Positions 36,173-61,001 of a stretch of DNA of 64,000 bases are shown piece after piece. Made by a program: the position numbers and the translations under genes. Position 1 is the first letter of the stretch. Each line of letters starts with the position of its first letter. A model generated the notes under the pieces. The model was not told the DNA's origin. It worked only from the letters and a program-made list of their open reading frames with translations, and did no database searches. The DNA comes from Candidatus Woesearchaeota archaeon (lineage in GTDB: Archaea > Nanobdellota > Nanobdellia > SCGC-AAA011-G17 > UBA489), in NCBI GenBank assembly GCA_018302985.1, contig JAGVZA010000005.1, positions 10,281-74,280 of the forward strand, in the 5' to 3' direction.

Positions 36173-37528
36173 TTATGATTTCGGAAAAAGATCTACTGGT
36201 TGGTCATTAGGTGGTGAAGATTTAGGGAGTTGTTGTAAATACCTTTGAAATCCTAAGGCCAAAGCTTCTGCAAAGGCAGGTAAATGGTTGTCCAAAAGAG
36301 TAAATGTATTGGTGTTGTCTGTAAAGTCTATAAACACTGCTGGAATTTGTAAACGTTCTTTGTAAAAAAGAGGATGTGATTGTTCTAGAGTAGGTTGCGC
36401 TAAAAAGAGTCCTTGTTGTGCAGCTTGTTCTAAATTCAAAGGCTTTAAGTTTAGAGTAAAATCAAGCTTGTAGACTGCATGCTCAGGTGTATCTTGGAGT
36501 TGCTGGTTATGTAAATAAACTTTGCCTGATAAAGAGCGAAGTGACTGTTCTAGTGCTTCTGCAAAGAGTTTGCTTTGAGAAGAATCTTGTAAATAATAAA
36601 GAGTTACTATGTCTTGTGTAGTCGCTGTTGAATAAGAAACTAAAGGAGAAAGAATAAGGAGTTTGTCTGCTAGAGGTGGATTAAGATTCTTGGAAAAAGT
36701 AGTTAATTTTGCTGGAAGTGTATCTGTGAGTCGAGTATAATCAGCAGAAGGAAGAGTAAAGGGAAGAGCAATAGGAAGACCGCGCATAAAAGGACTAACT
36801 CGACTAGTAGAAACCAGACTAGAAGAGGAGAAAGATTGTTGCAAGGAAGATATTAAATCTTTACCTATAGTTAAAACACGTTCTGGATCTCCAGTATTAG
36901 GAGTATAACGATGATTAAAGAAAATGCTCATGAGTTGGTTTGGATAATCTCTTTTTTGTGCGCAAGTTGGCAAGCGTGAAGAATATGCCTCTGATAAAAT
37001 GGGAGTTTGATCTGCGGTAAAATCTAAAAAAGTAGTAGCTTGGCAAAGACGTCCATCAGGAGCGATATAAGCCATAAAATAATGGGTATCAAGAGGTAAT
37101 CTATAATAAGGAGAGGTAAATAAATCATACTCACTTAGTGGAGAAACTTTCCATTGTGTAGGTTTGGTATCATCAGAATAACCATAAGAGCATAAAGGTT
37201 TGTCATTTATTTTTTTGCTCAGTAAACGCTTGTTAGTTTCCTTTTTAGTTAAATCTAAATAAACACCATCTGCTGCAGTAATCAATTGAATGACATCTTC
37301 TTTAGGAAAAGAAGGAAGAGTAACATAAGGACAGTAGCAGTCTACTTGTTGAAAACTCATACATTCTTGCAAATAATTTTGTAATTGATCATAAACCATT
37401 CTTGAACGCACATCAATTTTATTCTCAAAAAAAACTTGATTAGTACAAGAAATGGTAACAATAATAAGGATAAGAGAAAGAATAAGACCTGTAAAAAAAG
37501 GAGAAAAAGATTCTTCTGCTCGTTTCAT
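36173..37528 (-). CDS. large pilin-like / pilus-associated protein, 451 aa
   Basis: MKRA|EESFSPFFTGLILSLILIIVTI, then a large ectodomain. Confidence 0.5.
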   Translation of the reverse strand: MKRAEESFSPFFTGLILSLILIIVTISCTNQVFFENKIDVRSRMVYDQLQNYLQECMSFQQVDCYCPYVTLPSFPKEDVIQLITAADGVYLDLTKKETNKRLLSKKINDKPLCSYGYSDDTKPTQWKVSPLSEYDLFTSPYYRLPLDTHYFMAYIAPDGRLCQATTFLDFTADQTPILSEAYSSRLPTCAQKRDYPNQLMSIFFNHRYTPNTGDPERVLTIGKDLISSLQQSFSSSSLVSTSRVSPFMRGLPIALPFTLPSADYTRLTDTLPAKLTTFSKNLNPPLADKLLILSPLVSYSTATTQDIVTLYYLQDSSQSKLFAEALEQSLRSLSGKVYLHNQQLQDTPEHAVYKLDFTLNLKPLNLEQAAQQGLFLAQPTLEQSHPLFYKERLQIPAVFIDFTDNTNTFTLLDNHLPAFAEALALGFQRYLQQLPKSSPPNDQPVDLFPKS

Positions 37529-37530
37529 AG

Positions 37531-37716
37531 TTATGGACCTATAATATCTTTAATAGGCGGTCTAGATTGATTAATCTCCTTGGAAATGGAAAAAATGGTG
37601 TTGAAAAAGTTGCTCACTTGTTCTCGAAACATGACAGACAAAACAAGTAAGACTAAAATAGCAAGAATAAAGAGAATAACATACTGTAGTTCTAATGCCC
37701 CTTTTTTAAATAGCAT
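37531..37716 (-). CDS. small pilin-like protein, 61 aa
   Basis: MLFKKG|ALELQYVILFILAILVLLVL. Own TATA box (TTTAAATAAC) about 25 nt upstream. Confidence 0.55.
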   Translation of the reverse strand: MLFKKGALELQYVILFILAILVLLVLSVMFREQVSNFFNTIFSISKEINQSRPPIKDIIGP

Positions 37717-37826
37717 ATAAGAAGTTAGAGGAATGTGTTATTTAAAGGTTATGGAGTTCGTCAAAAACATTATTTATCTGAATCAGTAATAGAAAAGTGT
37801 GACAAGTTATGTGCAAAACTAGGTTT

Positions 37827-38999
37827 TTATTTCTTGTTAGGGACTATTAATTTTTGTATTCCTGTAAATAATACTTTACCTTCTCCCGTAGAAACTTGCA
37901 CAATCAGCTCTGGATATCCAATATCTAGTATGTTTTCTGTTGTCCAACTCACTTTTATTTTATCTCCATCGCGTACTATCGCTTGTTCTGTAAATGTAGC
38001 AACTTCGTCAGGTTTACCAACATCACTATCTAAAATTTTAATGACTAAATCTTCTACAATGCAATCAATAACTTTAAGATTAATAGTGACTTTTTCTCCT
38101 AAATCTTTTCTTTCTTGAAGTTCTTCTTCCCACCATTTTTTTGGAGTTTCCAAAGTTTTTCCAAATTCATCTCCCCAATAAGTATAACCTGCAAAAGCTG
38201 CTTGCACTTTACAAGCATTAGGTTTTAGTTGCTGAGCTGGAGTGGATTCATCACATAAGGGTCTATTGATATAAGTTCCAGAAAATTGTGGATTAATAAA
38301 ACACATCTGATCTGGTGTAGGCTTATAAAAATAAATTAAGAAAGGAATAGTATGGCTATCAGTAAGAAGATTTTCATTATTGGTATAAGTAAGGCTAAAC
38401 ATTGCATCCTTGCTATCTTCAATAGGTCCACTCGTCGATTGAGTCGCAAAAAAAGATTCCAAAGGATAAAGTTGTTGAGTTAAGGGTAAGGGTATAGTAA
38501 GAGATGCTGGAAAAGTATTTGCTGTAATATAACAAAGACGTTTTCTCTTTGATGCTGTATCTAAACCAAGAGGAATGCGTTTTTGTAAAACAAACTGTTT
38601 TCCTTCCTCGATGCGATAGGGGAAAAGATAGTAGCCTAAATTAGGATCTCGTTTAAGTGTAAAGGTATATTTCTCATCACCCGAGCTGGAAAGTGGTATT
38701 CTGCAAAAACAGTCACTTTTCGGTGAATTAAAACAGCTTTGAAAACTTGTAACGAAAGAGGTATATTTAGCTAGGAAATCTCCATCTGCTTGTGTTTTTC
38801 TTACCTCTTCTTCTTTGCCTGTAAGCTTGTCAAATCCAGCTTTGATGTCCTTGCTAATCTCTCGCAAAGTGCCATATTGCTCTGAAGATCCTTTTTGAAA
38901 AAAGGGAACAAGAACAAAAATAACTATAAGTGCGAGAACAGTTATAATAAGAAGATTAGGAATTTCTGTTGTTGCCTTTTTTGAAGAAAGAAGAGTCAT
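37827..38999 (-). CDS. large pilin-like / pilus-associated protein, 390 aa
   Basis: MTLLSSKKA|TTEIPNLLIITVLALIVIFVLV. ATGA overlap with the upstream small ORF. Confidence 0.5.
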   Translation of the reverse strand: MTLLSSKKATTEIPNLLIITVLALIVIFVLVPFFQKGSSEQYGTLREISKDIKAGFDKLTGKEEEVRKTQADGDFLAKYTSFVTSFQSCFNSPKSDCFCRIPLSSSGDEKYTFTLKRDPNLGYYLFPYRIEEGKQFVLQKRIPLGLDTASKRKRLCYITANTFPASLTIPLPLTQQLYPLESFFATQSTSGPIEDSKDAMFSLTYTNNENLLTDSHTIPFLIYFYKPTPDQMCFINPQFSGTYINRPLCDESTPAQQLKPNACKVQAAFAGYTYWGDEFGKTLETPKKWWEEELQERKDLGEKVTINLKVIDCIVEDLVIKILDSDVGKPDEVATFTEQAIVRDGDKIKVSWTTENILDIGYPELIVQVSTGEGKVLFTGIQKLIVPNKK

Positions 39000-39166
39000 T
39001 TTCTAGTAAGTAACCCCAAAATTCTATCAAAAATACTAGAAGATTCTCCTCGCAAAATACCAGAATAGATTAAGAGAATAACAAGAACAACTAAAGCTAT
39101 AACTAAAATAACTACTTGTTCAATAGTTATATTTCCTTTAGTTTTAGCCTGAGACAACAGTATCAC
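38996..39166 (-). CDS. small pilin-like protein, 56 aa (not in ORF track; GTG start assumed)
   Basis: Manual translation gives (M)ILLSQAKTKG|NITIEQVVILVIALVVLVILLIYSGILRGESSSIFDRILGLLTRK. Overlaps both neighbouring genes. Confidence 0.45.
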   Translation of the reverse strand: MILLSQAKTKGNITIEQVVILVIALVVLVILLIYSGILRGESSSIFDRILGLLTRK

Positions 39167-40043
39167 ATCTTTGTTTTTCTAAAGTTTTGTAATCAGTCAA
39201 AAAAATTGCTCCAGTATCTGTTCCTAATTCAAAATAATCAAAAAGGAAATAGCCTGTAGCATGAACATTCAAGCTAACATAACAAATACCTGAAGCTGCT
39301 GATACTCCAATAATGGGGCCGACTACAGGAACAATCCATCCTACTACAAAACCAATTCCAACACCTGCTGCGCAAGTACCGGCAAAACTTTCTGCCGTAT
39401 CTAGCAATTTAGAAAATGAACCACGAGAGACAGTAACATAAGTTATACCATAATTTTTGCCAGTGTCTAATGTACCTGAAGATGATTTTGAATTAATACC
39501 AATACCTCCTTGAAGATCAGCAACTATAGTGTTTCCATCTTTTTTAAATTCAGTATTGTAATCTAGTCCTGAAGCTGTTTCCATGCGTAAAGCGGCTGAG
39601 TGTAAATCTGCTTCTGTAATAAAGGGTGTTGTTTTATCTGTTTCCAGTGAATAGCAAATATAACAATATTGATGAGAAATAAATCCAGCGGCTTTTGGTC
39701 CTCCAACCATCTCCTTGCAAGTCAGCATTTTATCTAAGATAATGTGCATGGCTGCATCTTTCTGAGTTTCTCCTTTGTCCCGTTGTTTGTCAATAAATTT
39801 ATCATTAAATTTGATAATGGAAGTTGAGCACCAAGGTTTAACATGTGTAGAAAACACAGGTAATTGATTCAGCATAAGACTAAAACTGCAGCGCCATTCT
39901 TGTAAGCTCAGACGAGTAGATGTAGAGCCTACTTTAGTGATCATAGGAATAGTAACAATAAGAAAAACAACTGTGAGAATAAGAACAATGATAAGATTAG
40001 TACTTAATTCAAAACCTCTTTTATTAAAAAAAGTTTTACCCAT
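39144..40043 (-). CDS. pilin-like protein, 299 aa
   Basis: MGKTFFNKRG|FELSTNLIIVLILTVVFLIVTI. Cys-containing ectodomain and a C-terminal hydrophobic Gly-rich segment. Confidence 0.55.
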   Translation of the reverse strand: MGKTFFNKRGFELSTNLIIVLILTVVFLIVTIPMITKVGSTSTRLSLQEWRCSFSLMLNQLPVFSTHVKPWCSTSIIKFNDKFIDKQRDKGETQKDAAMHIILDKMLTCKEMVGGPKAAGFISHQYCYICYSLETDKTTPFITEADLHSAALRMETASGLDYNTEFKKDGNTIVADLQGGIGINSKSSSGTLDTGKNYGITYVTVSRGSFSKLLDTAESFAGTCAAGVGIGFVVGWIVPVVGPIIGVSAASGICYVSLNVHATGYFLFDYFELGTDTGAIFLTDYKTLEKQRCDTVVSG

Positions 40044-40176
40044 GGATGAATCTCCCGATTGCTAGAAAAATAAGAACACCTATAAGTATGGTCAATAAGA
40101 TATATACCAGCTCTTTTTCCATAAGAACAAAAGAAGTTAGCTTATTTATAAAGATTGAGGAAATAAACTTAAATCA

Positions 40177-40662
40177 TCATTTATTGGAATCGAGAACTGT
40201 TTGTATCTTTTGAAGACAATACTCTGATGGGGATTGCACTTTTTCTGTAGTTGTACCGTCTGCGTTAGGAATAGTAACAGTTTGAGGACAAGGAACATCT
40301 AAAGATTCATCGCCTGATCTAGGATAACAATAATACTTATCATATTGTTTTACATCGCCAGTCATATCAAATTCTGCTTCACCATCATTGTTTTCATCAA
40401 TAGAGAAACTTTCCTTGCAATAAGCTGAGCTGGTCCAAGAAGATTGAGGCAAGATTTCTAGAGAATCACAGCGTGCTTTGCAAATACCTACTGCAGTTAC
40501 TCTGTCTTGTCCTGCAATAGTGTCATAAAAGAAGCCACGAATGAATTTAGAAACGCCACTAGTACCGCCTAAGAAGAAAGCACCGACAACAAATAAGACT
40601 AATACGACGAGAATTGCAATAATCACCGTATTCATTGGTAATGCTTGAGCTTTACGAGACAT
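40177..40662 (-). CDS. candidate major pilin, 161 aa
   Basis: MSRKAQA|LPMNTVIIAILVVLVLFVVGAFFLGG, then a Cys-containing globular domain. Own TATA box plus a GAGGT Shine-Dalgarno. Start moved to the ATG at 40662. Confidence 0.6.
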   Translation of the reverse strand: MSRKAQALPMNTVIIAILVVLVLFVVGAFFLGGTSGVSKFIRGFFYDTIAGQDRVTAVGICKARCDSLEILPQSSWTSSAYCKESFSIDENNDGEAEFDMTGDVKQYDKYYCYPRSGDESLDVPCPQTVTIPNADGTTTEKVQSPSEYCLQKIQTVLDSNK

Positions 40663-40668
40663 AACTTG

Positions 40669-40716
40669 AACCTCTTTTCTAAAAACGTTCAACGATCCTT
40701 CCTATATAAATATTGT
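40669..40716 (-). promoter_or_regulatory. promoter (TATA ATATTTATATAGG) and GAGGT Shine-Dalgarno of the candidate major pilin
   Basis: On the minus strand the TATA-like box lies at 40701..40716 and GAGGTT at 40669..40674, with GAGGT ending 7 nt before the ATG (40662). Confidence 0.4.
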
Positions 40717-41370: not shown

Positions 41371-42048
41371 CTAACGATCTTTCCAGCCTTTCCAGATCAA
41401 ACTGCCTATAATTAAAAATCCGCCAATAGCAGCCATCTGAGCGAAGGTTAAATCCATACTAAAAGAGAATTGATTACAGTCAAACAGCCAATAAAAATTT
41501 GTACAGAGCCATGTCTGTAAATCATTGAAAAGACTCGTCAATAAAACAATAGCAAGTAAAGTACCTACAACTGCAGCCCAATGTTTTTCAGTTGCTTTAA
41601 AAATACCATAATAAATACCTGCTAAAAGTGCAGCAAGAAGAACAATGATGCCGACAGGACCTAACTCATAAATAATGTAGATACCTTGTCGTTCTTCCCA
41701 GATCATAAGTCCTAAAGTAAGAGCTAATCCTACTGCCACATACAAAGATTTACCGCCCGTGTTAAAGTGTTTCAAAAAGACAGCTTTACCTATACTTAAA
41801 AAGATTATAAGAAAAATTATAGAGTCGATATAAACATGAAATTCTTCATAAAAATTAGTAATACTAAGTTGACCACCGCCATAAAATCCACCATAGCCAC
41901 CACCATATCCTCCGCCGTAACTATAATCACGATAAACTAATGCACCAGTAGGATCAAAACTAGGTTGCATGAAAATTCCCACAGTAACAATAGCTATGAA
42001 AACAAGTGCTATAGAAATCCACGGGATACGAGAAACCTCTTTTTGCAT
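41371..42048 (-). CDS. polytopic membrane protein with an extracellular GGY-repeat loop
   Basis: TM helix, then QPSFDPTGALVY, then YSYGGGYGGGYGGFYGGG, then about 5 TM helices. Confidence 0.5.
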   Translation of the reverse strand: MQKEVSRIPWISIALVFIAIVTVGIFMQPSFDPTGALVYRDYSYGGGYGGGYGGFYGGGQLSITNFYEEFHVYIDSIIFLIIFLSIGKAVFLKHFNTGGKSLYVAVGLALTLGLMIWEERQGIYIIYELGPVGIIVLLAALLAGIYYGIFKATEKHWAAVVGTLLAIVLLTSLFNDLQTWLCTNFYWLFDCNQFSFSMDLTFAQMAAIGGFLIIGSLIWKGWKDR

Positions 42049-42083: not shown

Positions 42084-44195
42084 CTAACTAACGCCTACAA
42101 AGCTAACTGTATTGGCTAAAAGAGTAAAGACAACAATGCCTATAAAACTTACTAGAAAATAAAGAATGCCTGCAGTCAAAAGATTTTTGCTAAGACGCTG
42201 GTGTGTAGTAGTCTGATCATATCCTCGTTCAATGCGTGTAGATAATAAAGTAAGAATAATAGTGATCTGTACAACATAAATGCCAACAACTAACTGAAAA
42301 TAATAGCTGGGAATAACATCTTTAATATCCAAAACACTGACTAAAGCGCTAATGCCTCCAGTCAATCCTTGTTCTGGATTCTCTAGACTTGCAAATTGTT
42401 CTCCTAATTTGTTAATGATTGTAACCACCATGCTGCCCACACCAACAACTATGCCTGCAATTAAGGGAGTCAAAAAAGTAATTTGGCTAGTCATGCTGCT
42501 TAAGACATCTGCTAGTAAATCTTTCAATCGTTCATTAATGCGATAAATTCTAGTGATATAATCGCTGATAGTTAACAAGCTTCTGCTGACAATTTGTGAA
42601 CCTTTTTTTGCGCTTTCAACTAGAACTTTCATCGTGCTTTCAATTAAAGAACTTGGGAAAAATAATAAAGCTCCACGTTGGGGATGAAATATAGCTTCTT
42701 TAATGCTCATGCCTGCATTGCGAATATTCATGTTGACAATTCTAAAGAAATCACCAGTAGGTGTTCCTTGCATTTGTTGACTGACATCACCGAAAGCAAT
42801 CTCTGCTGGAATGCCATCGCCAATTCTATTGCCTAATTGAAATAATGCACCGCTAAACTCAACTTCCAAGGCATCTGTCTTTTCTTTGAAGGCAATCAGT
42901 TTTCTGCTTTTGACCCAATAGAAAAAAGCTAATCCTAAGGAAAGTCCAAGAGGAATCAAGAGACTCAAAAAGAGTGCACCTACTCCGTAAGGCCCATTGC
43001 CTCCTTTAAAGTCAAAGAATTCTCCGCCGAAAAAAGGAAAATCAAAGTCAGGACTAAAAAAATAAATATAAATAGGAATAAATCCTACAATGCAAAATAA
43101 CGAAATAATGGATAAAGTAATAGACAAAGGAGACACTCCATTTGCTAAGCTTTGATAGCGCTTCAAATCTGGATGTTGTAAAAGAATGTCATTTTCTCCA
43201 TAGCCCGTAGGTCTGGTGTTAAGCATAGAATTACCCAGATACATGACTAAAAAAGGTAAAATTAAATTATAAAGAAATGCAATATGATACCATTTAACCA
43301 GTCCTGATAAAAAACTGCCAATCATAGGAAACATGACTAAACCCAGAATAGGTAAGATAATACCTAACATGTGTAAGACAGTAATGGGGCTTTTCAAATT
43401 GTGTGCATAATGCAGCATCTTGTCATAAGTTCCATCCAGCATGACTTGTAAAGATTTTTCCAATAATTCCAAGCGTTTGCCTTCGCTCTGCTCATACAAA
43501 CTTCCTTCAATCAAATGAAAAGATTCTAAAAATTCTAAGTTGTATTTTCTCCATTGTTCTAAATAAGCATCCAAACTTTCTTTGATTGTAAAATATTCTT
43601 CAGTTTCTATTTGCCAAAAGACACGTTTTAAATCTAAGCTTAAAGGTCCTCCTAAGTGTTCTGCGGCAAATTTGACTGCATGTTCTAAATTAGAAGTATG
43701 ACGCATGTACATGACAATATACAGAATACACAAAACCATTTGATTGCTCACTTGTAATCTCCATCGAGTTGCAAAATAATGAGGTAATCTTGACAAAGGT
43801 TTAATTAAAACTACACCTGCTAAAATAAAAAATAAGCTAGCAGATAACAAAAGACTGCCAGCAACATAGCTGATTACTCCAATAAAGACGCCAAAAAATA
43901 CTAGGGCTAAAGAAGCTAAAGCAGCGAAGCTAGCGGTGCTGTTAGGTGTAATATCTAGATGAGAAATACGCAGAGATTCTTGAATTGCTGGAAGTTCTTT
44001 GTCTTGAACTTTAACTGGAAGAAGATGTTCTGCAAATTTGCACCATTGCTCATAATAAGTAAATCGTTTCTCCAAAGCTTCTTTGCGAAATAAGAGATAT
44101 TCGCGAGATTGCACTGGAGAATATAAAGAATCTCCTGTTGATGCTTCAAGACGCTGTTGATATTTGCGGACAACGTCGTCTACTGTCGAATTCAT
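42084..44195 (-). CDS. polytopic membrane platform protein (TadC/FlaJ/PilC-like by position and topology), 703 aa
   Basis: 4-nt overlap with the ATPase gene. Many TM helices alternate with cytoplasmic helical domains. Family membership not verified by motif. Confidence 0.55.
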   Translation of the reverse strand: MNSTVDDVVRKYQQRLEASTGDSLYSPVQSREYLLFRKEALEKRFTYYEQWCKFAEHLLPVKVQDKELPAIQESLRISHLDITPNSTASFAALASLALVFFGVFIGVISYVAGSLLLSASLFFILAGVVLIKPLSRLPHYFATRWRLQVSNQMVLCILYIVMYMRHTSNLEHAVKFAAEHLGGPLSLDLKRVFWQIETEEYFTIKESLDAYLEQWRKYNLEFLESFHLIEGSLYEQSEGKRLELLEKSLQVMLDGTYDKMLHYAHNLKSPITVLHMLGIILPILGLVMFPMIGSFLSGLVKWYHIAFLYNLILPFLVMYLGNSMLNTRPTGYGENDILLQHPDLKRYQSLANGVSPLSITLSIISLFCIVGFIPIYIYFFSPDFDFPFFGGEFFDFKGGNGPYGVGALFLSLLIPLGLSLGLAFFYWVKSRKLIAFKEKTDALEVEFSGALFQLGNRIGDGIPAEIAFGDVSQQMQGTPTGDFFRIVNMNIRNAGMSIKEAIFHPQRGALLFFPSSLIESTMKVLVESAKKGSQIVSRSLLTISDYITRIYRINERLKDLLADVLSSMTSQITFLTPLIAGIVVGVGSMVVTIINKLGEQFASLENPEQGLTGGISALVSVLDIKDVIPSYYFQLVVGIYVVQITIILTLLSTRIERGYDQTTTHQRLSKNLLTAGILYFLVSFIGIVVFTLLANTVSFVGVS

Positions 44196-47100
44196 GATGA
44201 TGGAAACTTCCTGCGTTTAACTTCTTGGCGCAACCAAGCTTCCCAATCTGCAAAAATGCGTTTATTGTCATAAACATGATGTTGTTCATTGATTTTGTCT
44301 GCGCTTTGATGAAAATAATCATTGCTTTGCACAACAAAAGGTGCTTCAAGAAGTTCTGGAAGTGCATAAGCCTGTGCTGCCTTAAGTAAAGTTTCTTTCA
44401 CTTGTGCGCGCACTAAGACTCCATCCCAGACCGCATCCCAATTGCCTGCCCATTCACGAACATTTGCAGCAATGCTTTTCAAGACTTCGCTATTGCCTTG
44501 TAATAAATCATCTGTAGGTAAAAGTGCATCTTGTTTGCTGTCATATCTGAACAAATCTACAAAGCCGCCTTGCTTTTGTGGATCATCATCCCAATGTTTG
44601 CGTACTTCTGTAATTTGTAAAACTCTTCTCTTGCTGTGTAAGCCATCTGCGCTGCGAACTGGATTGCTAACGATAATAAGATCAACTGCTTTGAAGCTAG
44701 TTTTGGGTACTCCCAAATCATTAACTATTCTATCATAAACAGCATAAGGATGTGCACCATGAATAGTTCCTGCAACAACATTTGCTAAAGCGCCAATTCT
44801 CATCGCTTCAAACAAAGCTTTAGCTTCAAGACTTCTGATTTCTCCAACAATTAAGGAACTATCACCCATACGAAGAGAAGTTCTAATGCCTTCATCAGCA
44901 GCAAGTTCATTGCCTCCGCTCATTAATGCGGCTCGTACTTTCATCGGTTGAATATTATAACCCATATTGCGTAAAGCGTCAATCGGAAGTTCAAGCGTAT
45001 TATGAAGTAAAATATTATTACAAACAAAGTTTTCATAATCTGGAACAGATAAGTCATAGACATATAATTCTGTAGAGGATAGTGGTTCAATCTCTGCAAC
45101 TTCATCCCAAAAAATGTCGGCATGAACTAATTTTTGCAAATTTTGAGTAATGTTAGTTGTTATCTGAACTTGAGTCATTAAAGTTAGGAATTTTCTTCTA
45201 CCGACATTATTATTTCTAGAGATATAATCTTGAGTATTAAAAATTTTATTATCTTTAGTAAGATTAGAAATTTCTTTTTTCAGCTGGAGAGATAGAGGGA
45301 TAATATCAGTAGTGTCATGTGTTGAACGTTTTAAGCAAAGTTTATCTAAACAATTGAGTTTGTAAGATTGTAAAACACCAATATTTTTCTTAAATTCTAT
45401 AAAATCTCTTAATGTGCTAATCCCAGCATTAAAAGTACCGTCTTTCCTTTTTTTTCCTATTCGAAGGGTAATGTCATAACCCAAGAGCAAAGTTTGAAGA
45501 TCTCTTAATAATTGATAAGAGGCTAGAGGAATAACTATTTCATTATCAGAAACACAGCCGTCTCCACTGAAAACTCCCTGAAGAACAAAAGCTATTTGTT
45601 GTTTGGAAAGACTATAAATCCATGAAGGAACTTTCTTAGTATAAGCATCTCCGCGAAGTTCAAGGATGTCTCGAAAAATAAATCTAAGAGTTGTTGAATT
45701 AATCATTAAAGATCCACCATCAGAATGAATCTTAGGGGTCAATTTGAATTGTTTTGCGGCTAAACAAACTATATTACTATCTTCTTCGTCAAAGCTAGAC
45801 ACGATTATAGATCTTTCATCATAACAGCCATCTGCTAGCCATAAGCCAACAAGCATTAAAAATTCAGAATCAAGTCTAATGTCTGTTGGTATTGGTTGGG
45901 AATTTCCAGAGTATTTATAGGATAATTTTTCTTTAAAGGGAGTAAAGTCTATATTTAAGTTCTTAAGGATAACAATAGGCAATTGTCCTAATCTAAGCCA
46001 ACGAGGAGGTATCGAACGTGTATAACCTTGTTCTTTTGCTAATTGTTTAATCTCAGAGTAGTATTTTTTTATAAATTTTTTCAAAGATTCTCCTTGTAAA
46101 ATACCTCTAGGAATTCTATCTAAATAATCTAATAAGTTAATAGTATTCTGAGCATAGTCGTTGAAAGGTATTTTTCGTATGGTAGCTATATGAGATCCTA
46201 TAGATAAATTAACGGGTTTTATTTCTTGAAGTGTGCCTTCGTCACCTAAAGTAAAAAGAGAATGATCTGCAGTAGTTTTAATAATTCGTCCAGTTCGTGT
46301 TTTAATCTGATAAATTTGCTTTTGCACTTTGTGACGAATAAGTTTTGATGGATGTGACCAAGTAAGTTTATTGTCTTTATTGAGAGAAAGAACTTGAATG
46401 GATTCACGATTCCCTAAGACTTCATGGCCTGAAAGATTATACCATGATCCATATTTTTGAATTGAAGAATCTATAAGTTTACCTATAGTGGTTTTTTGTA
46501 TGCAATTTGCTTTTTTGATAAGAATTTCTGAATCACCTGTAACACTGTCTTCAATGGAAATAATTCTATGGGTGCGCATAATTTCTACAAGTGATGCTCC
46601 CAACAAACTAGTCTTACCGCTTCCTCTTGTACCTGCAAATAATAAAGTTCTTCCGCCATCAATAGCAAAACTCAAAACTGCGGCAGCTAAAGGTGTCAGC
46701 ATTTTCTGTTGAATAAATAAAGGCAATGTCCAAGGTTTATCTCTATGTCTACGGAATGCAAAAGACAATCCGACAGGGCTTAAGGGAGTTGTAATAACAG
46801 ATACTCTGCTTCTTGCTCCGGGTATAGACAAGTCCGTATCTAGAACAGGATTTGCTTCATCTAAAGGTCTTCCGCTTAACAAACGCAATTTAGTTGCCCA
46901 ACTATCACTGTCTTCTCTGCTTGGAATAATATTAGTAACACATTCTCCATAATCTTGATGCACTAAGAAGATAGGAGTTTGACCTATAGGTCCATTCACC
47001 ATGATGTCTTGTACCTTTTCGTCTTGTAATAAAATTTCTAAAATGCCAAAACCAACAGTATAGCGCACTAAAATATCTGCTAATAGTGCAATTTGTTTGT

Positions 47101-48040
47101 AGTCAAGGGAAATTTGTTTGTGTTCTACTAGTTCTTGCAATAAATCTCTCCCAATGTTAAAAAACGTTTTTCTCATGCGTTGAGGATCTAAAAATTCTTC
47201 TTGCCGTGGCTTGTGTTCTGCTAAAACATTTCTTGCTAATTCTAAAAGAGTATATTCGTCTTCAGTTAATTTGAATTCTGGAGGATAAAGATGATAAAGT
47301 AATTTAATGTCTCCTGGTATGCGAAAAACAGTAATCTCGCTTTTGCCATTAGAATAGACATCAACTTGTTCTCCATTCAAAGGAGGTTGTGCCATCACCT
47401 GAGTATACATGAAATCGGGAGTCATCAAAGGTCGGAAGAGTTGACGGTAGAAGCTTCTGTCACCTATCTTATAGCCAGCTAATTGGCTGCGAACCACAGC
47501 AACCATCTGTGTAGAATCAAGTAAGGTGAAGAAATATTCTAATAATCCAGCATAACGTTTGCGTAAATGAAGTAAAGGCTGAACAGTTTCTCGTTCTATA
47601 ACTATTTTTTCTTCGCGTAGTAATCTCTGAACTTCAATATAGCAGCCCAAGGGATCATGACGCAATAAATCAAAGACTAAATATTCAAAGAGTGAGTTTT
47701 TTTCTTGAATAAATCCAACATAAGATTCATCAAAACCTAATGCTCCTAAAGTAAAGAGTTTTTTTCCTCGAACTAGATGATCATAGATTTTGGCAATTTC
47801 AACTAGATATTGAGTCTGTTCAGAATTATAAGAGTAGTAACGTCTCTGATGAAAAAACAAACGACTTACTGTAGGGACTTCAACTAATTTGTCAATCGTG
47901 CTTGCCATCACTAGGGGATGGTCTTCTACAGAGGGACTATGGCTCCATTTATTCGCGTCAATGCGTAAAACTTCCTCACTCCCTTCCAAAATAATTTCAT
48001 ATTCACCAGTTTTTTGTGCCTCAGGCATAAAATCTTTCAA
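44192..48040 (-). CDS. type IV pilus/archaellum-family assembly ATPase (GspE/FlaI/VirB11 superfamily), intein-containing precursor (1282 aa; 766-aa extein)
   Basis: Walker A GTRGSGKTS. IED|TLEL is restored after intein removal. Also LIVGEIRSLEA and GTIHGA boxes. Confidence 0.9.
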   Translation of the reverse strand: MKDFMPEAQKTGEYEIILEGSEEVLRIDANKWSHSPSVEDHPLVMASTIDKLVEVPTVSRLFFHQRRYYSYNSEQTQYLVEIAKIYDHLVRGKKLFTLGALGFDESYVGFIQEKNSLFEYLVFDLLRHDPLGCYIEVQRLLREEKIVIERETVQPLLHLRKRYAGLLEYFFTLLDSTQMVAVVRSQLAGYKIGDRSFYRQLFRPLMTPDFMYTQVMAQPPLNGEQVDVYSNGKSEITVFRIPGDIKLLYHLYPPEFKLTEDEYTLLELARNVLAEHKPRQEEFLDPQRMRKTFFNIGRDLLQELVEHKQISLDYKQIALLADILVRYTVGFGILEILLQDEKVQDIMVNGPIGQTPIFLVHQDYGECVTNIIPSREDSDSWATKLRLLSGRPLDEANPVLDTDLSIPGARSRVSVITTPLSPVGLSFAFRRHRDKPWTLPLFIQQKMLTPLAAAVLSFAIDGGRTLLFAGTRGSGKTSLLGASLVEIMRTHRIISIEDSVTGDSEILIKKANCIQKTTIGKLIDSSIQKYGSWYNLSGHEVLGNRESIQVLSLNKDNKLTWSHPSKLIRHKVQKQIYQIKTRTGRIIKTTADHSLFTLGDEGTLQEIKPVNLSIGSHIATIRKIPFNDYAQNTINLLDYLDRIPRGILQGESLKKFIKKYYSEIKQLAKEQGYTRSIPPRWLRLGQLPIVILKNLNIDFTPFKEKLSYKYSGNSQPIPTDIRLDSEFLMLVGLWLADGCYDERSIIVSSFDEEDSNIVCLAAKQFKLTPKIHSDGGSLMINSTTLRFIFRDILELRGDAYTKKVPSWIYSLSKQQIAFVLQGVFSGDGCVSDNEIVIPLASYQLLRDLQTLLLGYDITLRIGKKRKDGTFNAGISTLRDFIEFKKNIGVLQSYKLNCLDKLCLKRSTHDTTDIIPLSLQLKKEISNLTKDNKIFNTQDYISRNNNVGRRKFLTLMTQVQITTNITQNLQKLVHADIFWDEVAEIEPLSSTELYVYDLSVPDYENFVCNNILLHNTLELPIDALRNMGYNIQPMKVRAALMSGGNELAADEGIRTSLRMGDSSLIVGEIRSLEAKALFEAMRIGALANVVAGTIHGAHPYAVYDRIVNDLGVPKTSFKAVDLIIVSNPVRSADGLHSKRRVLQITEVRKHWDDDPQKQGGFVDLFRYDSKQDALLPTDDLLQGNSEVLKSIAANVREWAGNWDAVWDGVLVRAQVKETLLKAAQAYALPELLEAPFVVQSNDYFHQSADKINEQHHVYDNKRIFADWEAWLRQEVKRRKFPSS
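44999..46546 (-). mobile_element. 516-aa intein with a LAGLIDADG homing endonuclease domain (Ser1 ... His-Asn | Thr+1)
   Basis: Block A SVTGDSEILI, block B TTADHSLF, LAGLIDADG motifs LVGLWLADGCY and LQGVFSGDGCV, block F VYDLSVPDYENFV, block G NNILLHN|T. In frame with the host gene. Confidence 0.85.
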
Positions 48041-48151
48041 AAGAACGAAATTTATATACTTTCCTCATGCACGAGAGAAAGGCAGAAAGCTATTTAAAGG
48101 ACGATACCTCCTCACAAAAGAAAGAGGTGAACGAGAGTTCTCCAAACAAGT

Positions 48152-49150: not shown

Positions 49151-49669
49151 TTATTTTGTTGAGCCTAAGTAACGTACTGTAAAGGCTGCAATCATCAAAA
49201 GGAAAAGACCGCCAAGAACTCTTGGGGAAAAGACAACTCGTTTAGTAGATTCCCAAAATCCTGCTTGCCCGCTCACTTGGAATATAGGTCCGAATGCTTT
49301 TGTTAGGGATATTAAAAAGATAATAAGAAAGATAACAATCATAGTATTATAAAAACCAGGGCTTTTAACAACATGTTTCACTAAATCATCATCTTTTGCT
49401 CCTAAGAACATAAAGAATAGGAAAATCAAGAAGACAAACAAAAACATAATGACTATCATAGGAGTCATAGTTTGCACAACATCTCTTGCTGGTGTAGACA
49501 AGACTATAAGTATCGATAAGGAAAAAGCTGCTATTGCTGCAAGATTCTCAGATTTGTCACCAAAGATCTTGAATTTTTTAATTAAAGCAAAAAAGATAGC
49601 AAACAATAAGATGAATATAAAGATAGGTGTTAAAAACGAGACAATGCTGGTATCGAGAATGGTTGCCAT
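49151..49669 (-). CDS. membrane protein, tandem paralog 3 of 3
   Basis: Shares an N-terminal helix plus a K-x-K-IFG motif (FFALIKKFKIFGD) with the two upstream genes. Confidence 0.5.
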   Translation of the reverse strand: MATILDTSIVSFLTPIFIFILLFAIFFALIKKFKIFGDKSENLAAIAAFSLSILIVLSTPARDVVQTMTPMIVIMFLFVFLIFLFFMFLGAKDDDLVKHVVKSPGFYNTMIVIFLIIFLISLTKAFGPIFQVSGQAGFWESTKRVVFSPRVLGGLFLLMIAAFTVRYLGSTK

Positions 49670-49672
49670 GAA

Positions 49673-50206
49673 TTATTCCTCTTCTTGTTTCTTTGGTTTT
49701 TTACCGGAAGAACTGCTTCCAGGTTCTTTAGTAAGGAAGTAAAGAATAGTTCCTACAATAGCTATTACAACAATCCATTGAGGTATAGTTTCAAAGAAAT
49801 AATAGACAGGATCCCAGCCAAAGCCTTCACTTTCTAGAGGACTTAAAGACCAAATGAGGAAAATAGCAGCTGCTAAAAAAGCTAACCAGCTCCATCCATT
49901 GCTTGCTTCATGAGTTTTTCCTGAAAGGACGCCTGCCAATAATAAAAATAAGACAAAGATGAGTAAGGAAAATGCAACTTTAGGCAAAATAAACTGAATG
50001 CGTTCAATCAAATAAACGTTTTGTAAAAACAGAAGTCCTAGAATTGCAGAAACTAGAACATTAATTTGTTTCTTGCCTTCTCCGAAGATTTTGATCTTTT
50101 CTAAAATAGCAAAACTAATTGCAAAAATAAGTAAGAAGGGAAGTAAAACTCCATAAACACCAATTTCCTGCCATTGCGTTATCACGCTGTAAAGATCGTA
50201 AGCCAT
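49673..50206 (-). CDS. membrane protein, tandem paralog 2 of 3
   Basis: LLPFLLIFAISFAILEKIKIFGEG. Charged C-terminal tail. Confidence 0.5.
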   Translation of the reverse strand: MAYDLYSVITQWQEIGVYGVLLPFLLIFAISFAILEKIKIFGEGKKQINVLVSAILGLLFLQNVYLIERIQFILPKVAFSLLIFVLFLLLAGVLSGKTHEASNGWSWLAFLAAAIFLIWSLSPLESEGFGWDPVYYFFETIPQWIVVIAIVGTILYFLTKEPGSSSSGKKPKKQEEE

Positions 50207-50217
50207 AGTTAAATCAC

Positions 50218-50790
50218 CTAAGTTTTAGATTTGCCTCCACTACCTTCTGCTGATGGGTTGCCTTTGCCTATAACAAACCACATAGCAGCAACTAATAGAA
50301 GTAAAAAGATAACTGAAGTAAAAATAGTGCTACTTTGTGCATCACCTGTAAAGAAGTTTAAAATAGTTCCTAACTGACCAAATGCTGCAAGGAAGATAAT
50401 TAAAACAACTACAATAAGAATAACCATAAAAGTTGCGGTAGGTTTCTTGAATGTTTTGAAAAAGTCAAGTTGACCTTCACCAAAAAAGATGCCTACTAAT
50501 AACATGAAGCTCACAATAATAACTAAGACTAAAGCTACCCAAGGTAAAGCAATTTGGAATGCGCTAACTATGCTCACAGAAGCAGTTACAAAAAAAGCAA
50601 CTGAAAAAGCTACCATAGCGTTCAAATTCTTTCGTGTTTGTTCTTTGTCTTTAGACCCTTCCGTACCGAAGATTTTGGTTTTTTCTAAAACTGCGAATAC
50701 TAAAGTGAAAACTAGTAAAAAAGGTAGAATAACATCGAAAAGTCCAAAGTCTTGCAAGAACTGTATCGCATTCCCTAACGTACTAGCCAT
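50218..50790 (-). CDS. membrane protein, tandem paralog 1 of 3
   Basis: ILPFLLVFTLVFAVLEKTKIFGTEG. Charged C-terminal tail. Confidence 0.5.
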   Translation of the reverse strand: MASTLGNAIQFLQDFGLFDVILPFLLVFTLVFAVLEKTKIFGTEGSKDKEQTRKNLNAMVAFSVAFFVTASVSIVSAFQIALPWVALVLVIIVSFMLLVGIFFGEGQLDFFKTFKKPTATFMVILIVVVLIIFLAAFGQLGTILNFFTGDAQSSTIFTSVIFLLLLVAAMWFVIGKGNPSAEGSGGKSKT

Positions 50791-53320: not shown

Positions 53321-54835
53321 ATGATAGAAATTAGAAACTTCTCCCCGCGAGAATATCAAAAAAATATCCTCGAAACCTGTAAAAAGAAGAATACTTTAGT
53401 ATGCCTGCCAACAGGAACTGGAAAGACAAAAGCAGCCATTTTGCTCGCTGTAGATCGTTTAAACAAACATGCTTTTTCTAAGGTAGTAATCTGCTCTCCG
53501 ACAAAACCCTTAGCCAGTCAAATTTGTAAGGAGTTTAAAGAGTGTACTAATATCAACCCAGAAGAAATTAATCTATTGACTGGGCAGGTAAATCCAGAAC
53601 TCAGAGCCAAGATATGGAATGACTCACAAATCATCGTTGCTACTCCACAAACTATAGAAAGTGATCTGGAAAAGAAAAGAATATCTTTAGAAAATGTTTC
53701 TTTATTATGTATTGATGAGTGCCATCGTTCCAAAGAAAACTTCGCAAACACCACTGTAGCAAAAATCTATAATGAAACAGCGAAAAACGCAAGAATTTTA
53801 GGTTTAACTGCTTCACCAGGATCATCTAGAGAAATCATTGATCTAGTCTGTCAAAATTTATTTATTGAATCAGTTGAAGTAAGAACACAAGAAGATGAGG
53901 ATATTAAAGAATATATTCAGGAAAAAGATATGCAGTATATCAAAGTGGATTTGCCAGAAGAAATAAATGAGATTCGTAATCTCTTAACTCCAGTCTATCT
54001 CTCAAAAGTAGGAGAACTCAAAAAATTTGGAATGACTAAGCCCACAGGAATAATTAACAAAAAAGATTTGCTCATGATGCAGAGACAGTTGCTGCAAGAC
54101 ATTCGTCACGGCAATCCAGCAGCTTACAGTGGCATTTCTATGGTTACTCAAGCTATCAAGCTAAGTTATCTTATTGAATTAGTAGAAACACAAAGTCTGG
54201 CAGCAGCAAAAGAATACTTAGTTAAGTTAGAAGAAGAAACAAGTAAAGCAGCCACATTCTTAAGAAATCAAAAACAAGTCATAGAAGCTAAGAAAAAAAT
54301 TCTTGAAGCAGTTGAGAAACAAGTCAAGCATCCAAAATTACTGAAATTAATGGAAATCTTGCAGGAAGAAGTAAAAAATCCTGATGCAAGAGTCATCGTC
54401 TTTGCAAATTTAAGAACTATTGTAGATGAAATAGTTGCAGAGCTTACTAAAATAAACATCAAGGCAAAAAAATTCGTAGGACAGTCAGATAAAAAGAATA
54501 AAGGATTAAAACAAAAAGAACAAATAGAAACCATCGAGCAGTTCAAAGACAAAGAATTCAAAGTCTTGGTTGCCTCTTCAGTCGGTGAAGAAGGTCTAGA
54601 CATCCCAGAAGTCAATGCTGTAATATTTTATGAGCCTGTCGCAAGTGAGTTAAGACGTGTCCAGCGTTCAGGTCGTACTGGAAGAACAATGCCAGGGAGA
54701 ATTATTTATTTAATTACAAAAAAAACAAGAGATGAAGCTTATCATTGGGTAGCGCAGAAAAAAGAAATCAAGATGCAGAATATTTTGCAGAGCATGAAAA
54801 GGAAACAAGAGCAGCAAACAACACTAGACAAATGA
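53321..54835 (+). CDS. hef: Hef/FANCM-type SF2 helicase (helicase half only)
   Basis: CLPTGTGKT (motif I), IDECHR (motif II), LTASPG (motif III), VGEEGLDIPEVN (motif V) and QRSGRTGR (motif VI). Confidence 0.85.
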   Translation: MIEIRNFSPREYQKNILETCKKKNTLVCLPTGTGKTKAAILLAVDRLNKHAFSKVVICSPTKPLASQICKEFKECTNINPEEINLLTGQVNPELRAKIWNDSQIIVATPQTIESDLEKKRISLENVSLLCIDECHRSKENFANTTVAKIYNETAKNARILGLTASPGSSREIIDLVCQNLFIESVEVRTQEDEDIKEYIQEKDMQYIKVDLPEEINEIRNLLTPVYLSKVGELKKFGMTKPTGIINKKDLLMMQRQLLQDIRHGNPAAYSGISMVTQAIKLSYLIELVETQSLAAAKEYLVKLEEETSKAATFLRNQKQVIEAKKKILEAVEKQVKHPKLLKLMEILQEEVKNPDARVIVFANLRTIVDEIVAELTKINIKAKKFVGQSDKKNKGLKQKEQIETIEQFKDKEFKVLVASSVGEEGLDIPEVNAVIFYEPVASELRRVQRSGRTGRTMPGRIIYLITKKTRDEAYHWVAQKKEIKMQNILQSMKRKQEQQTTLDK

Positions 54836-55494
54836 GTAAAATTATTGTAGACCATCGTGAACGATCTTCAGGCATCATTCCAGAATTAGCAAAACATGAT
54901 TTAGAAGTAGAAGTACAACAATTAGTTACTGCAGACTTCATAGTACAGACCATCGACAGTAATGGTGTAATTCATAATGTAGGTGTTGAAAAGAAAACAC
55001 AAACAGATTTTCTAAATTCAATCATAGACAAAAGAATTATCACTCAATTAGTAATGTTGAAAGAGAACTTCTCTGTTCCATTGTTAATCATTGAAGGCGA
55101 AGATAATATCTATCAGCTAAGAAATTTTCACCCTAATGCAATCAGAGGAATGTTAGCTGCCATTGCGATTGACTTCCAAATCCCAATTCTCCACACAAAA
55201 AACTTTAGAGACACTGCATCGCTCTTAGCAATCATCGCAAAAAGATTGGAAAAGCCTTCGCGTGTTATGAGTTTGTTTGCAAAGAGAAAGTCATTAACTA
55301 AAAAACAGCAGCAGGAATATTTTATGGAAGCTCTGCCTAGTGTAGGTCCAACCCTGGCAAAGAATTTGTTAAATAAATTTAAGTCTATCAAGAACATTAT
55401 GAATGCTACTGAAGAAGAGCTGCAAGAAGTTGATAAAATTGGAAAGAAAAAAGCCAAAGAAATTAAGGAATTAATAGAACACATTTATGATTAA
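54832..55494 (+). CDS. XPF/ERCC4-type nuclease with C-terminal (HhH)2 (Hef nuclease half as a separate ORF)
   Basis: IIVDHRERSSGI, ADFIV, VGVEKKTQTDFLNSI (ERK motif) and LPSVGPTLAKNLL...VDKIGKKKAKEI. ATGA overlap with the helicase stop. Confidence 0.85.
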   Translation: MSKIIVDHRERSSGIIPELAKHDLEVEVQQLVTADFIVQTIDSNGVIHNVGVEKKTQTDFLNSIIDKRIITQLVMLKENFSVPLLIIEGEDNIYQLRNFHPNAIRGMLAAIAIDFQIPILHTKNFRDTASLLAIIAKRLEKPSRVMSLFAKRKSLTKKQQQEYFMEALPSVGPTLAKNLLNKFKSIKNIMNATEEELQEVDKIGKKKAKEIKELIEHIYD

Positions 55495-56014: not shown

Positions 56015-57217
56015 ATGCTCATTATTGAATTACTTTTGGGATTGTGCATCGGTTGCTTAATAGGTATTTTCACAGGCATCACTCCAGGAGTGCATATCAA
56101 TTTAGTCTCAGTTATTATTCTCTCCTTAAGTCCCTGGCTTTTGCAGCACGTCTCTCCTTTAACATTAGCTCTAGTAATTGTAGGCATGACTATAGTGCAC
56201 ACTTTTCTAGATAGTATTCCAGCAACGTTTCTAGGTGCTCCTGATAGTGATGAAATCTTATCAGTCTTGCCAGGACATAAATTATTATTAGATGGCAAAG
56301 GCTATGAAGCAGTCACGAGAACAGTCATAGGAACTCTAGCTGCAGCAATAGTTATGATTGCTTTAACACCTGTATTAATTTTCGGAGTAAATGTGCTCTA
56401 TCCCTTAGTCAAAGAAAAAATGAGCATTATTTTGTTAGTATTATGCTGTTTTTTTATTTGGAAAGAGCCAAGATCAAAACTCTGGGCATTATTAGTTTTT
56501 TCTTTAGCAGGAGTTTTAGGAATAGTCACTTTAACCTTTGGATTAAAAGATCCTTTATTTCCTTTATTCTCAGGATTATTTGGGACAGCTGGATTGTTAT
56601 TAAGTATCAATGATAAAGTAAATGTTCCTGAACAAAAAATATCATTCCCAACAATAGAAAAAAATCAAGGATTTAATGCTATTACTTCTGCAGTCATCTC
56701 AGGATCAGTATGTTCTATGTTGCCGGGTCTTGGTCCATCACAAGCTGCCATGATTGGAGCTCAATTCACCAAAGCTATGACTAGTGAAACATTTCTCATC
56801 CTCAACAGCGCGTTAAACATGGTCAACATGATGATGTCTTTCATAACTTTATACGCCATTGACAAGGGAAGAAACGGAGCAATAGTAGTTGTAGGACAAA
56901 TCATAGGAGATTTAGGAAAAAGAGAATTACTTATCTTGCTTGCTGCAGTATTAATTGCATTGGGCATTGGCACTTGGCTTACGTTAAACTTAACCAAAAT
57001 CTTTGCAAAGCTCATGACAAAAATAAATTATAAAAAGCTCTGCATAGGGATTATAGTCTTTGTTACTAGTTTAGTAATCTTTATGACAAGTTGGCAAGGA
57101 TTACTTATTTATCTCACAGCAACTAGTCTAGGGTTGTTGCCGCCATTAAAAAATGTTGGTCGTTCACATATGATGGGATGTTTATTAGTTCCCATTATTT
57201 TATTTTTAATGTTATAA
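56015..57217 (+). CDS. TctA-family (DUF112/COG1784-like) integral membrane protein
   Basis: ITPGVHINL and MLPGLGPSQAAMIGA resemble the duplicated G-x-x-PG-x-G TctA motif. About 10 TM helices. Confidence 0.5.
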   Translation: MLIIELLLGLCIGCLIGIFTGITPGVHINLVSVIILSLSPWLLQHVSPLTLALVIVGMTIVHTFLDSIPATFLGAPDSDEILSVLPGHKLLLDGKGYEAVTRTVIGTLAAAIVMIALTPVLIFGVNVLYPLVKEKMSIILLVLCCFFIWKEPRSKLWALLVFSLAGVLGIVTLTFGLKDPLFPLFSGLFGTAGLLLSINDKVNVPEQKISFPTIEKNQGFNAITSAVISGSVCSMLPGLGPSQAAMIGAQFTKAMTSETFLILNSALNMVNMMMSFITLYAIDKGRNGAIVVVGQIIGDLGKRELLILLAAVLIALGIGTWLTLNLTKIFAKLMTKINYKKLCIGIIVFVTSLVIFMTSWQGLLIYLTATSLGLLPPLKNVGRSHMMGCLLVPIILFLML

Positions 57218-61000: not shown

Positions 61001-61001
61001 A

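Follow-up and report, generated by a model that had tools for sequence, protein, structure and literature searches.

A LAGLIDADG intein in the Asp box of a type II/IV secretion-class ATPase from a Woesearchaeota archaeon

The DNA considered here, called the window throughout, is a stretch of 64,000 nucleotides (nt) from a groundwater Candidatus Woesearchaeota archaeon (assembly GCA_018302985.1, contig JAGVZA010000005.1); coordinates are positions in this window, on the minus strand where so marked. An original prediction, made from the sequence alone, had placed a LAGLIDADG intein at 44999..46546, inside the gene for a pilus assembly ATPase. The coordinates proved exact, Pfam and NCBIfam models detect both splicing and LAGLIDADG domains, and the insert is confirmed as an intein, beyond any chance pattern. 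We regard it, with high confidence, as a canonical class 1 intein carrying a LAGLIDADG homing endonuclease, situated between Asp494 and the threonine of the Asp box (IED|TLEL) and predicted both to splice and to home. It is a new example of a class 1 homing intein, in an ATPase family already known as an intein host.

The interval 44999..46546 (minus strand) is translated without a stop into 516 amino acids (aa), SVTGDSEILIKK...VCNNILLHN, and the plus-strand frame of the same interval contains stops. A single open reading frame (ORF) in the ORF list, 44192..48040 (minus strand), encloses it. The junctions read ...HRIISIED|SVTGDS and ...NILLHN|TLELPID, and excising the 1548 nt from the ATPase gene gives IISIEDTLELPID. 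The ligated junction peptide is predicted to be ...IISIEDTLELPIDALR, and the junction peptides of the precursor ...IISIEDSVTGDSEILIK and ...ILLHNTLELPIDALR. The gene is made up of the following parts.

48051..48058, minus strand: TATA-like box TATATAAA, 22 nt 5′ of the ATG, read directly from the sequence
44192..48028, minus strand: precursor gene, a T2SSE/FlaI-class ATPase with one intein, 1278 aa from ATG 48028 (Pfam T2SSE, Intein_splicing and LAGLIDADG_3)
46547..48028, minus strand: N-extein, 494 aa, with a family-specific N-terminal region and the N-terminal ATPase domain, alignable to PDB 2oap, 8rkd and 4ii7
46607..46633, minus strand: Walker A, GTRGSGKTS, in the N-extein
46547..46564, minus strand: first half of the Asp box, IISIED, in the N-extein
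44999..46546, minus strand: intein, class 1, 516 aa, a HINT domain split by a LAGLIDADG homing-endonuclease domain
46511..46546, minus strand: intein block A, SVTGDSEILIKK, with SVTGDSEI and the nucleophile Ser1
46253..46279, minus strand: intein block B, KTTADHSLF, whose TxxH is T92 and H95
45821..45859, minus strand: LAGLIDADG motif 1, LMLVGLWLADGCY (LWLADGC), with acidic residue D239
45551..45643, minus strand: block D, YTKKVPSWIY (K304), and LAGLIDADG motif 2, FVLQGVFSGDGCV (VFSGDGC, D329); Pfam LAGLIDADG_3 at 3.9e-13
44999..45067, minus strand: intein blocks F (LYVYDLSVPDYENFV, which contains VYDLSVPDYENFV) and G (CNNILLHN, ending in His515-Asn516)
44192..44998, minus strand: C-extein, 268 aa and stop, starting with Thr+1 of TLELPID (44978..44998) and ending in a family-specific C-terminal extension
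44831..44857, minus strand: Walker B, SLIVGEIRS, in the C-extein
44747..44773, minus strand: His box, AGTIHGAHP, in the C-extein

One figure of the original prediction does not stand. Its spliced product of 766 aa rested on the TTG at 48040, to which the mechanical ORF runs (1282 aa; 766 aa after excision). In every orthologue, as in the database gene calls, the protein begins instead with MPEAQK at ATG 48028, the orthologues being 762 aa long, and the TTG lies only about 10 nt 3′ of the TATA-like box, a position that favours the ATG. From these starts, the precursor most likely has 1278 aa and the spliced product 762 aa. The resulting frame of 3837 nt runs uninterrupted on 14 contigs, which come from several samples, with 0-1 nt differences; contigs with copies include JGI metagenome 3300002502 and scaffold ANAN16-1 (ENA ERZ28563625), which we take to be a Rifle aquifer groundwater assembly. 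An identical protein is deposited at NCBI as MBS3144472.1 (Ca. Woesearchaeota), under the name TadA and without an intein feature; the precomputed Pfam matches for this protein already mark the intein domains.

The insertion point is established by relatives that have no insert. A protein search with the extein returned a large family in Nanoarchaeota, Woesearchaeota and Pacearchaeota, its members ∼760 aa long and annotated as “type II/IV secretion system ATPase subunit”, of which the best 120 matches serve here as the family sample. The insert is absent from 115 of these, nearly all of which read EDT[LQ]E[LI]P at the junction; their consensus is matched by the IEDTLEL that excision recreates, as originally predicted. 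The closest relatives are intein-free proteins of 762 aa, at 93% (P0002), 89% (P0003), 86% (P0004) and 84% (P0005) identity. At the DNA level, two intein-free alleles from groundwater metagenomes are syntenic with the window (L015, 93% aa and 85% nt identity; L014, 89% aa and 80% nt), and both join exactly at ...ATTGAAGA(C/T)|AC(T)..., that is GAAGA(C/T)|AC, where the window has its 1548-nt insert. Homologues without the insert thus join precisely at IED-T, the point on which the original prediction had offered itself for refutation, and they do so in these two DNA alleles as well as in the family proteins. An in-frame insert that is absent from orthologues, and whose removal restores the host sequence exactly, is what is expected of a canonical intein.

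Solved structures of homologous ATPases lead to the same position. No gap opens across IED|TLEL when the spliced extein is aligned with Archaeoglobus GspE2 (2oap, kvvsiedtreikl), CpaF (8rkd) and FlaI (4ii7), the PDB matches of the extein to these being 2e-29, 6e-25 and 2e-21, respectively. On the precursor, Pfam T2SSE scores 1.5e-11; on the spliced extein it gives one continuous domain, residues 404-615, at 56.4 bits (cut-off 24.9), better than on the interrupted precursor. GTRGSGKTS, IISIED|TLEL, SLIVGEIRS and AGTIHGA follow one another in the order of the T2SSE/GspE-FlaI-VirB11 class, and VGEIR (Walker B) and GTIHGA (His box) are intact in the C-extein, as had been noted. Family, DNA-level and PDB alignments therefore agree on an insertion in the Asp box, IED|TxEL, of an ATPase of the GspE/FlaI/VirB11 superfamily.

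The domain content was determined with profile libraries. Pfam Intein_splicing matches the precursor at 6.4e-24 (85-88 bits vs a cut-off of 35.8) and LAGLIDADG_3 at 4.9e-12 (46-50 bits vs 22.5), and the NCBIfam models intein_Nterm and intein_Cterm both exceed their cut-offs. The best match in the curated libraries is the RpoA'' intein model NF011491 (4e-51 with the whole protein and 1.2e-50 with the intein by itself, over residues 1-516), although the RpoA'' intein differs in host and insertion site. All splicing blocks quoted in the original prediction (A, B, F VYDLSVPDYENFV and G HN|T) are found in the translation. Residue conservation was read from an alignment of 22 inteins, comprising that of the window and 21 relatives of 24-54% identity from several host proteins. 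Invariant in this alignment are S1, T92, H95, G234, W236, G240, K304, P307, G324, S327, D329 and G330, and at least 90% of the sequences share D239, V496, Y497, D498 (block F) and N516. The acidic residues of LWLADGC and VFSGDGC are thus retained, as predicted. The set of class 1 residues is present (S1, T92-x-x-H95, H515-N516 and T+1), and the nucleophiles originally proposed, Ser1 and Thr+1, are those of relatives inserted at the same site, in which Ser1 occurs in 65 of 65 and the C-terminal junction HN|T in 79 of 80. The insert is a textbook class 1 intein (Ser1, TxxH, His-Asn, Thr+1) whose homing endonuclease is apparently intact.

The predicted fold agrees with this assignment. An AlphaFold2 model of the intein, built from the 22-intein alignment, has a mean predicted local distance difference test score (pLDDT) of 93 and a predicted template modelling (TM) score of 0.92, with pLDDT above 90 in the endonuclease domain. 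Foldseek matches this model to PI-PkoII (2cw7; TM-score 0.76, E 4e-30), TliVMA (7qss) and PI-PfuI (1dq3), and its two halves also to the mini-inteins 5o9i, 4e2t and 6rpp and to the free LAGLIDADG enzymes I-DmoI and I-Tsp061I. The HINT fold is seen in the model, in the Foldseek intein matches and in the Intein_splicing match. The endonuclease shows the helices GLWLADG (D239) and GVFSGDG (D329) in the alpha-beta-beta-alpha-beta-beta-alpha pseudo-dimer fold. In PI-PkoII, PI-PfuI and TliVMA, as in the window intein, a LAGLIDADG endonuclease with two motifs and additional DNA-binding parts lies inside the HINT domain (TM-scores normalised by query/target length 0.76/0.73, 0.61/0.68 and 0.67/0.79, respectively; PDB sequence match to 2cw7 at 3e-15). 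Their hosts are different, however, being a DNA polymerase, a ribonucleotide reductase and a V-ATPase, and their identity to the window intein is 16-20%.

Established intein chemistry suggests how such an element would act. In the 1278-aa precursor as translated, the 516 residues would separate Walker A from Walker B and thereby split the nucleotide-binding core; the precursor would presumably be inactive until spliced, as is true of most inteins. The HINT domain would fold first, and an N-O acyl shift at Ser1 would be followed by attack of Thr+1 on the resulting ester (trans-esterification), giving a branched intermediate. Cyclisation of Asn516, assisted by His515, would then free the intein, and an O-N shift would leave a normal Asp-Thr peptide bond in a 762-aa ATPase with an intact IEDTLEL. 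It is reasonable to suppose, as the original prediction did, that assembly of the apparatus served by the ATPase depends on splicing; the same would apply to any intein in an active-site motif. The free intein is predicted to be a site-specific endonuclease, which would cut intein-less alleles around ATTGAAGA(C/T)|AC(N)CTTGAA, and repair of the cut allele would copy the intein gene in. Because this homing target encodes an invariant catalytic motif, many archaeal ATPases of the superfamily would come to carry one and the same allele at this codon, with a patchy distribution among close relatives.

The distribution of the Asp-box allele was examined within the family sample and beyond it. Three of the 120 family proteins carry it (P0001, P0019 and P0032), and each carrier has intein-free nearest relatives with 84-93% extein identity, the patchy pattern expected of a homing element. 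A HMMER search of 1.84 billion representatives with the intein gave 4172 matches at E≤1e-3 and 90 at E≤1e-30; ATPase exteins flank 60 of the top 150 representatives. HMMER and word-based searches agree in ranking the Asp-box inteins of T2SSE ATPases as closest, followed by inteins of myo-inositol-1-phosphate synthase (∼30% identity), DHH/RecJ-like proteins, a glycosyltransferase and RpoA''. Among all proteins retrieved, at least 85 clusters have a homologous intein exactly at [IV]ED|S...HN|T.E[LI]. Among the hosts are the DPANN family (TLELP) and, in other archaea, shorter FlaI/PilB-like ATPases (TRELQLP, TPELNLPH), for example P0138, P0139 and P0201. Length was measured for 54 same-site inteins: 50 have 368-526 aa, one span reaches 746 aa, and the other three, at 183-209 aa, are mini-inteins that lack the endonuclease.

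Several observations weigh against an actively homing element. Same-site inteins are only 48-54% identical where their exteins are 61-63% identical; since the inteins are less alike than the exteins, there is no sign of very recent transfer between the sampled lineages, and the donor lies outside those sampled. The intein may also have resided there for long and been lost precisely several times. Composition is at best a weak sign of mobility, as the intein has a GC content of 31% (19% at third codon positions, GC3) vs 37-41% (GC3 26%) in the exteins, a deficit that lies within the spread of ORFs in the window (0.26-0.41). Nor can selection on the endonuclease be read from a ratio of nonsynonymous to synonymous substitutions, because near-identical copies (L016-L018, 0-1 nt from the window) have no substitutions inside the intein and the next relatives, at most 60% identical, are saturated. 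No co-conversion tract was seen: local nt identity to L015 and L014 near the junction is not clearly below the gene average, and the region after TLELP is variable family-wide.

One alternative is that splicing is active while the endonuclease is dead or dying, the intein having reached a late stage of the homing cycle, in which it is passed on vertically as a passenger and is kept only since imprecise loss would destroy the ATPase active site. We consider this a real possibility, if an unlikely one. The divergence of same-site inteins beyond that of their exteins speaks for it, as do the endonuclease-less mini-inteins at the Asp-box site and the failure of the intein searches to find a recent donor. 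Both LAGLIDADG aspartates and the lysine of block D are nevertheless conserved across 22 relatives of low identity, the endonuclease domain is confidently modelled, and patchy presence among relatives 84-93% identical fits ongoing gain and loss. A further proposal, that the ATPase gene is a pseudogene with a degenerate, non-splicing remnant, can hardly be credited, as no specific point favours it and the evidence runs the other way: the 3837-nt frame is intact and identical on the 14 contigs, the splicing residues are all canonical, intein-free orthologues share 93% identity with the exteins, in which every ATPase motif is intact, and the 4-nt overlap with a conserved downstream gene is kept.

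Finally, splicing might be conditional on temperature, redox state, ions or substrate, and the intein might so act as a post-translational switch for a pilus-type ATPase, for example during host attachment of a DPANN archaeon. The intein does sit in a catalytic motif, the unspliced precursor is predicted to be inactive, the window has one ATPase of this type, and other archaeal inteins have been suggested to splice conditionally (PMC11409957). Against this, the sequence shows no feature suggestive of regulation, Ser and Thr serve as junction nucleophiles where known redox traps use Cys, close relatives live without the intein, which is hence dispensable for regulation, and the distribution resembles that of a selfish element. 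A switch of this kind is therefore very improbable. Equally slim are the chances of a wider scenario, in which the Asp-box IED|T allele is uncatalogued but very widespread, the motor ATPase, taken with its other sites, is a main non-replicative hot spot for archaeal inteins, and conditional splicing gates a host-contact filament. A literature search found no paper specific to the Asp-box allele, the insertion sites of the 2016 catalogue discussed below being outside the comparison. A canonical class 1 intein with a homing endonuclease remains the reading that we prefer.

The original prediction had also called a pilus or secretion ATPase an unusual host. That such ATPases are minority hosts holds; “unusual” is not supported, given the KlbA inteins, a published tally and the at least 85 same-site clusters. 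According to Table 3 of Novikova et al. (2016), 21 inteins lie in archaeal VirB11/COG0630 and 5 in CpaF/COG4962, in hosts from Crenarchaeota, Euryarchaeota and other Archaea, and the paper states that ∼5% of archaeal inteins reside in mobilome or secretion-system proteins (PMC4760082). These hosts are of the same class as that of the window, archaeal P-loop ATPases of type II/IV secretion or archaellum type; Table 3 gives no insertion sites (PMC4760082). The KlbA hosts and this tally make a secretion-type ATPase a minority but known host, and the earlier argument for novelty is weakened accordingly.

The KlbA intein (MJ0781, PDB 2jmz/2jnq) is alike in being archaeal and in interrupting a conserved nucleotide-binding motif of a T2SSE superfamily host. 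It differs from the window intein in most other respects. KlbA inteins are inserted at NTGHDG|A...SN|CSGTLHAN, just before the His box, whereas the window intein lies in the Asp box. They define class 2, in which the first residue is Ala1 and Cys+1 attacks the amide directly (PMC2807308). The Methanocaldococcus jannaschii copy is a mini-intein of 168 aa, compared with 516 aa in the window, and sequence similarity is weak, 2jmz being absent from the PDB matches of the window intein. A KlbA-type (class 2) label was rejected for the window intein in view of its Ser1, Thr+1 and Asp-box site. The M. jannaschii KlbA intein sequence proved identical over 167 aligned residues to PDB 2jmz (“MJ0781”), and a word-indexed protein search with it gave a single weak match. 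A scan of genome contigs recovered KlbA-type loci in Methanocaldococcus, Methanothermococcus and Micrarchaeota. KlbA hosts are Pfam T2SSE proteins (4e-37 for the Methanocaldococcus indicus orthologue; 1e-39) with GGTGSGKTT, IITIEDTPEL, FVGEVRG and TLHAN. At one such locus, in Candidatus Micrarchaeota JACRGC010000014.1 (L009:2867-5749, plus strand), the KlbA-type intein (Ala1...SN|C, pre-His site) has ∼430 aa with a full LAGLIDADG domain and a helix-turn-helix-like segment, and TadB/TadC-like T2SSF genes lie 3′ of the ATPase.

Other inteins were met in the same ATPase superfamily. In the ∼760-aa DPANN family, a second allele lies in Walker B, at GE(I/V)RS|S...HN|TEAKAL, in P0034 and P0105; it is unrelated to the window intein (24-26% identity). 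Proteins of ∼1780 aa (P0207, P0209 and P0211) carry Asp-box and Walker B inteins together. In P0217, a 2140-aa protein of Nitrososphaerota, the number rises to three: besides the Asp-box intein there is one in Walker A (GK|S...HN|TT) and one preceding the His box (...HN|TGHGGLGTIHA). Two or three inteins per protein were seen in the FlaI/TadA-like ATPases P0217/P0356 (Nitrososphaerota, 2140-2186 aa), P0216, P0220 and P0223. The extra sites in these multi-intein ATPases are GGTASGK|S...HN|TTTLNAL in Walker A, ...HN|[TS]GH[GP]..GT[IM]HA before the His box, and ...HN|SRVNAT in the N-domain. With the KlbA site counted in, the superfamily has at least five or six insertion sites and up to three inteins per protein. 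Neither a second intein nor a second T2SSE gene was found within the window.

As a single locus, the window intein is ordinary: it is a well-formed homing intein, and its host class already had KlbA and the 26 tabulated inteins of archaeal secretion ATPases. It opens no long-standing question. An annotation can be corrected, as the NCBI record names the 1278-aa protein “TadA” and leaves the intein unmarked. A full-length intein that is naturally Ser1/Thr+1 and cysteine-free at both junctions, with mini-intein relatives at the same site, could be of interest to intein engineers. The motor ATPase family is heavily colonised, with its sites all placed in nucleotide-binding motifs, in keeping with the general preference of inteins for conserved ATP-binding motifs. 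Such colonisation of many sites, together with the breadth of the Asp-box allele, may interest intein specialists but would not surprise them.

The host ATPase belongs to a ∼760-aa DPANN-specific clade with long N- and C-terminal extensions. Two more specific labels were rejected. Archaellum FlaI/ArlI was set aside since NF058587 scores 122.6 bits vs a cut-off of 550 and no FlaH, FlaJ or archaellin family is found among the neighbours, and the bacterial TadA/CpaF label of the NCBI annotation since TIGR03819 scores 111.8 bits vs 373 and the 703-aa neighbour has no T2SSF match. The protein is best understood as a putative type IV filament assembly ATPase (FlaI/PilB/TadA class), a pilus role being suggested solely by pilin-like neighbours. 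The adjacent genes are as follows.

42084..44195, minus strand: polytopic membrane protein, 703 aa; its start and the ATPase stop share 4 nt (ATGA)
40177..40692, minus strand: pilin-like gene 3′ of the ATPase, N-terminus resembling a class III signal peptide, read by eye
39144..40043, minus strand: pilin-like gene, likewise
37827..38999, minus strand: pilin-like gene, likewise

The 703-aa membrane protein keeps its place in L014, L016 and L017. It has no Pfam or NCBIfam match even at E up to 5, and profile-profile comparison (hhalign) with four T2SSF (TadB/C) proteins gave a weak result (probability 12.7%); it is a candidate for the platform (FlaJ/TadC-like) subunit. The 90% cluster of P0001 also holds this neighbouring protein (P0349, P0351), joined to it through P0353, a 1914-aa fusion call from one read-archive assembly. 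The fusion of ATPase and membrane protein is probably not genuine, having arisen from misassembly or a frameshift where the two genes overlap by 4 nt.

The interval 36173..40692 (minus strand) holds four consecutive genes whose products start with a short charged stretch and then ∼20 hydrophobic residues. Examples of these pilin-like N-termini are ...RKAQ ALPMNTVIIAILVVLVL, ...KRG FELSTNLIIVLILTVVFL and KRG|FELSTNLIIVLIL, and the mature parts are Cys-rich; the pilin-like products have no match in the Pfam or NCBIfam libraries. Just 3′ of the 703-aa protein, 41371..42048 (minus strand) encodes a multi-pass membrane protein of 225 aa in which a Gly/Tyr repeat, YSYGGGYGGGYGGFYGGG, follows the first hydrophobic segment. 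This protein has no family match and is conserved in the syntenic L014. Upstream of the ATPase operon and divergent from it, three tandem paralogous genes at 49151..50790 (minus strand) encode multi-pass membrane proteins of 172-190 aa, and they are kept in the same place in L014, L015 and L016.

Further away, a Hef/XPF-like repair enzyme is encoded at 53321..55494 (plus strand) as two ORFs, a DEAD/Helicase_C protein of 504 aa and an ERCC4/HhH2 nuclease of 249 aa. By their coordinates these overlap by ∼90 nt, and they are also separate genes in L014. The window has an overall GC content of 35%, and no tRNA genes or Rfam families were found across its 64 kb. Its housekeeping genes include an FtsY/SRP54-type GTPase (501..1829), DnaK (60987..62840) and TctA (56015..57217), which indicates that the window is chromosomal and not a mobile element.

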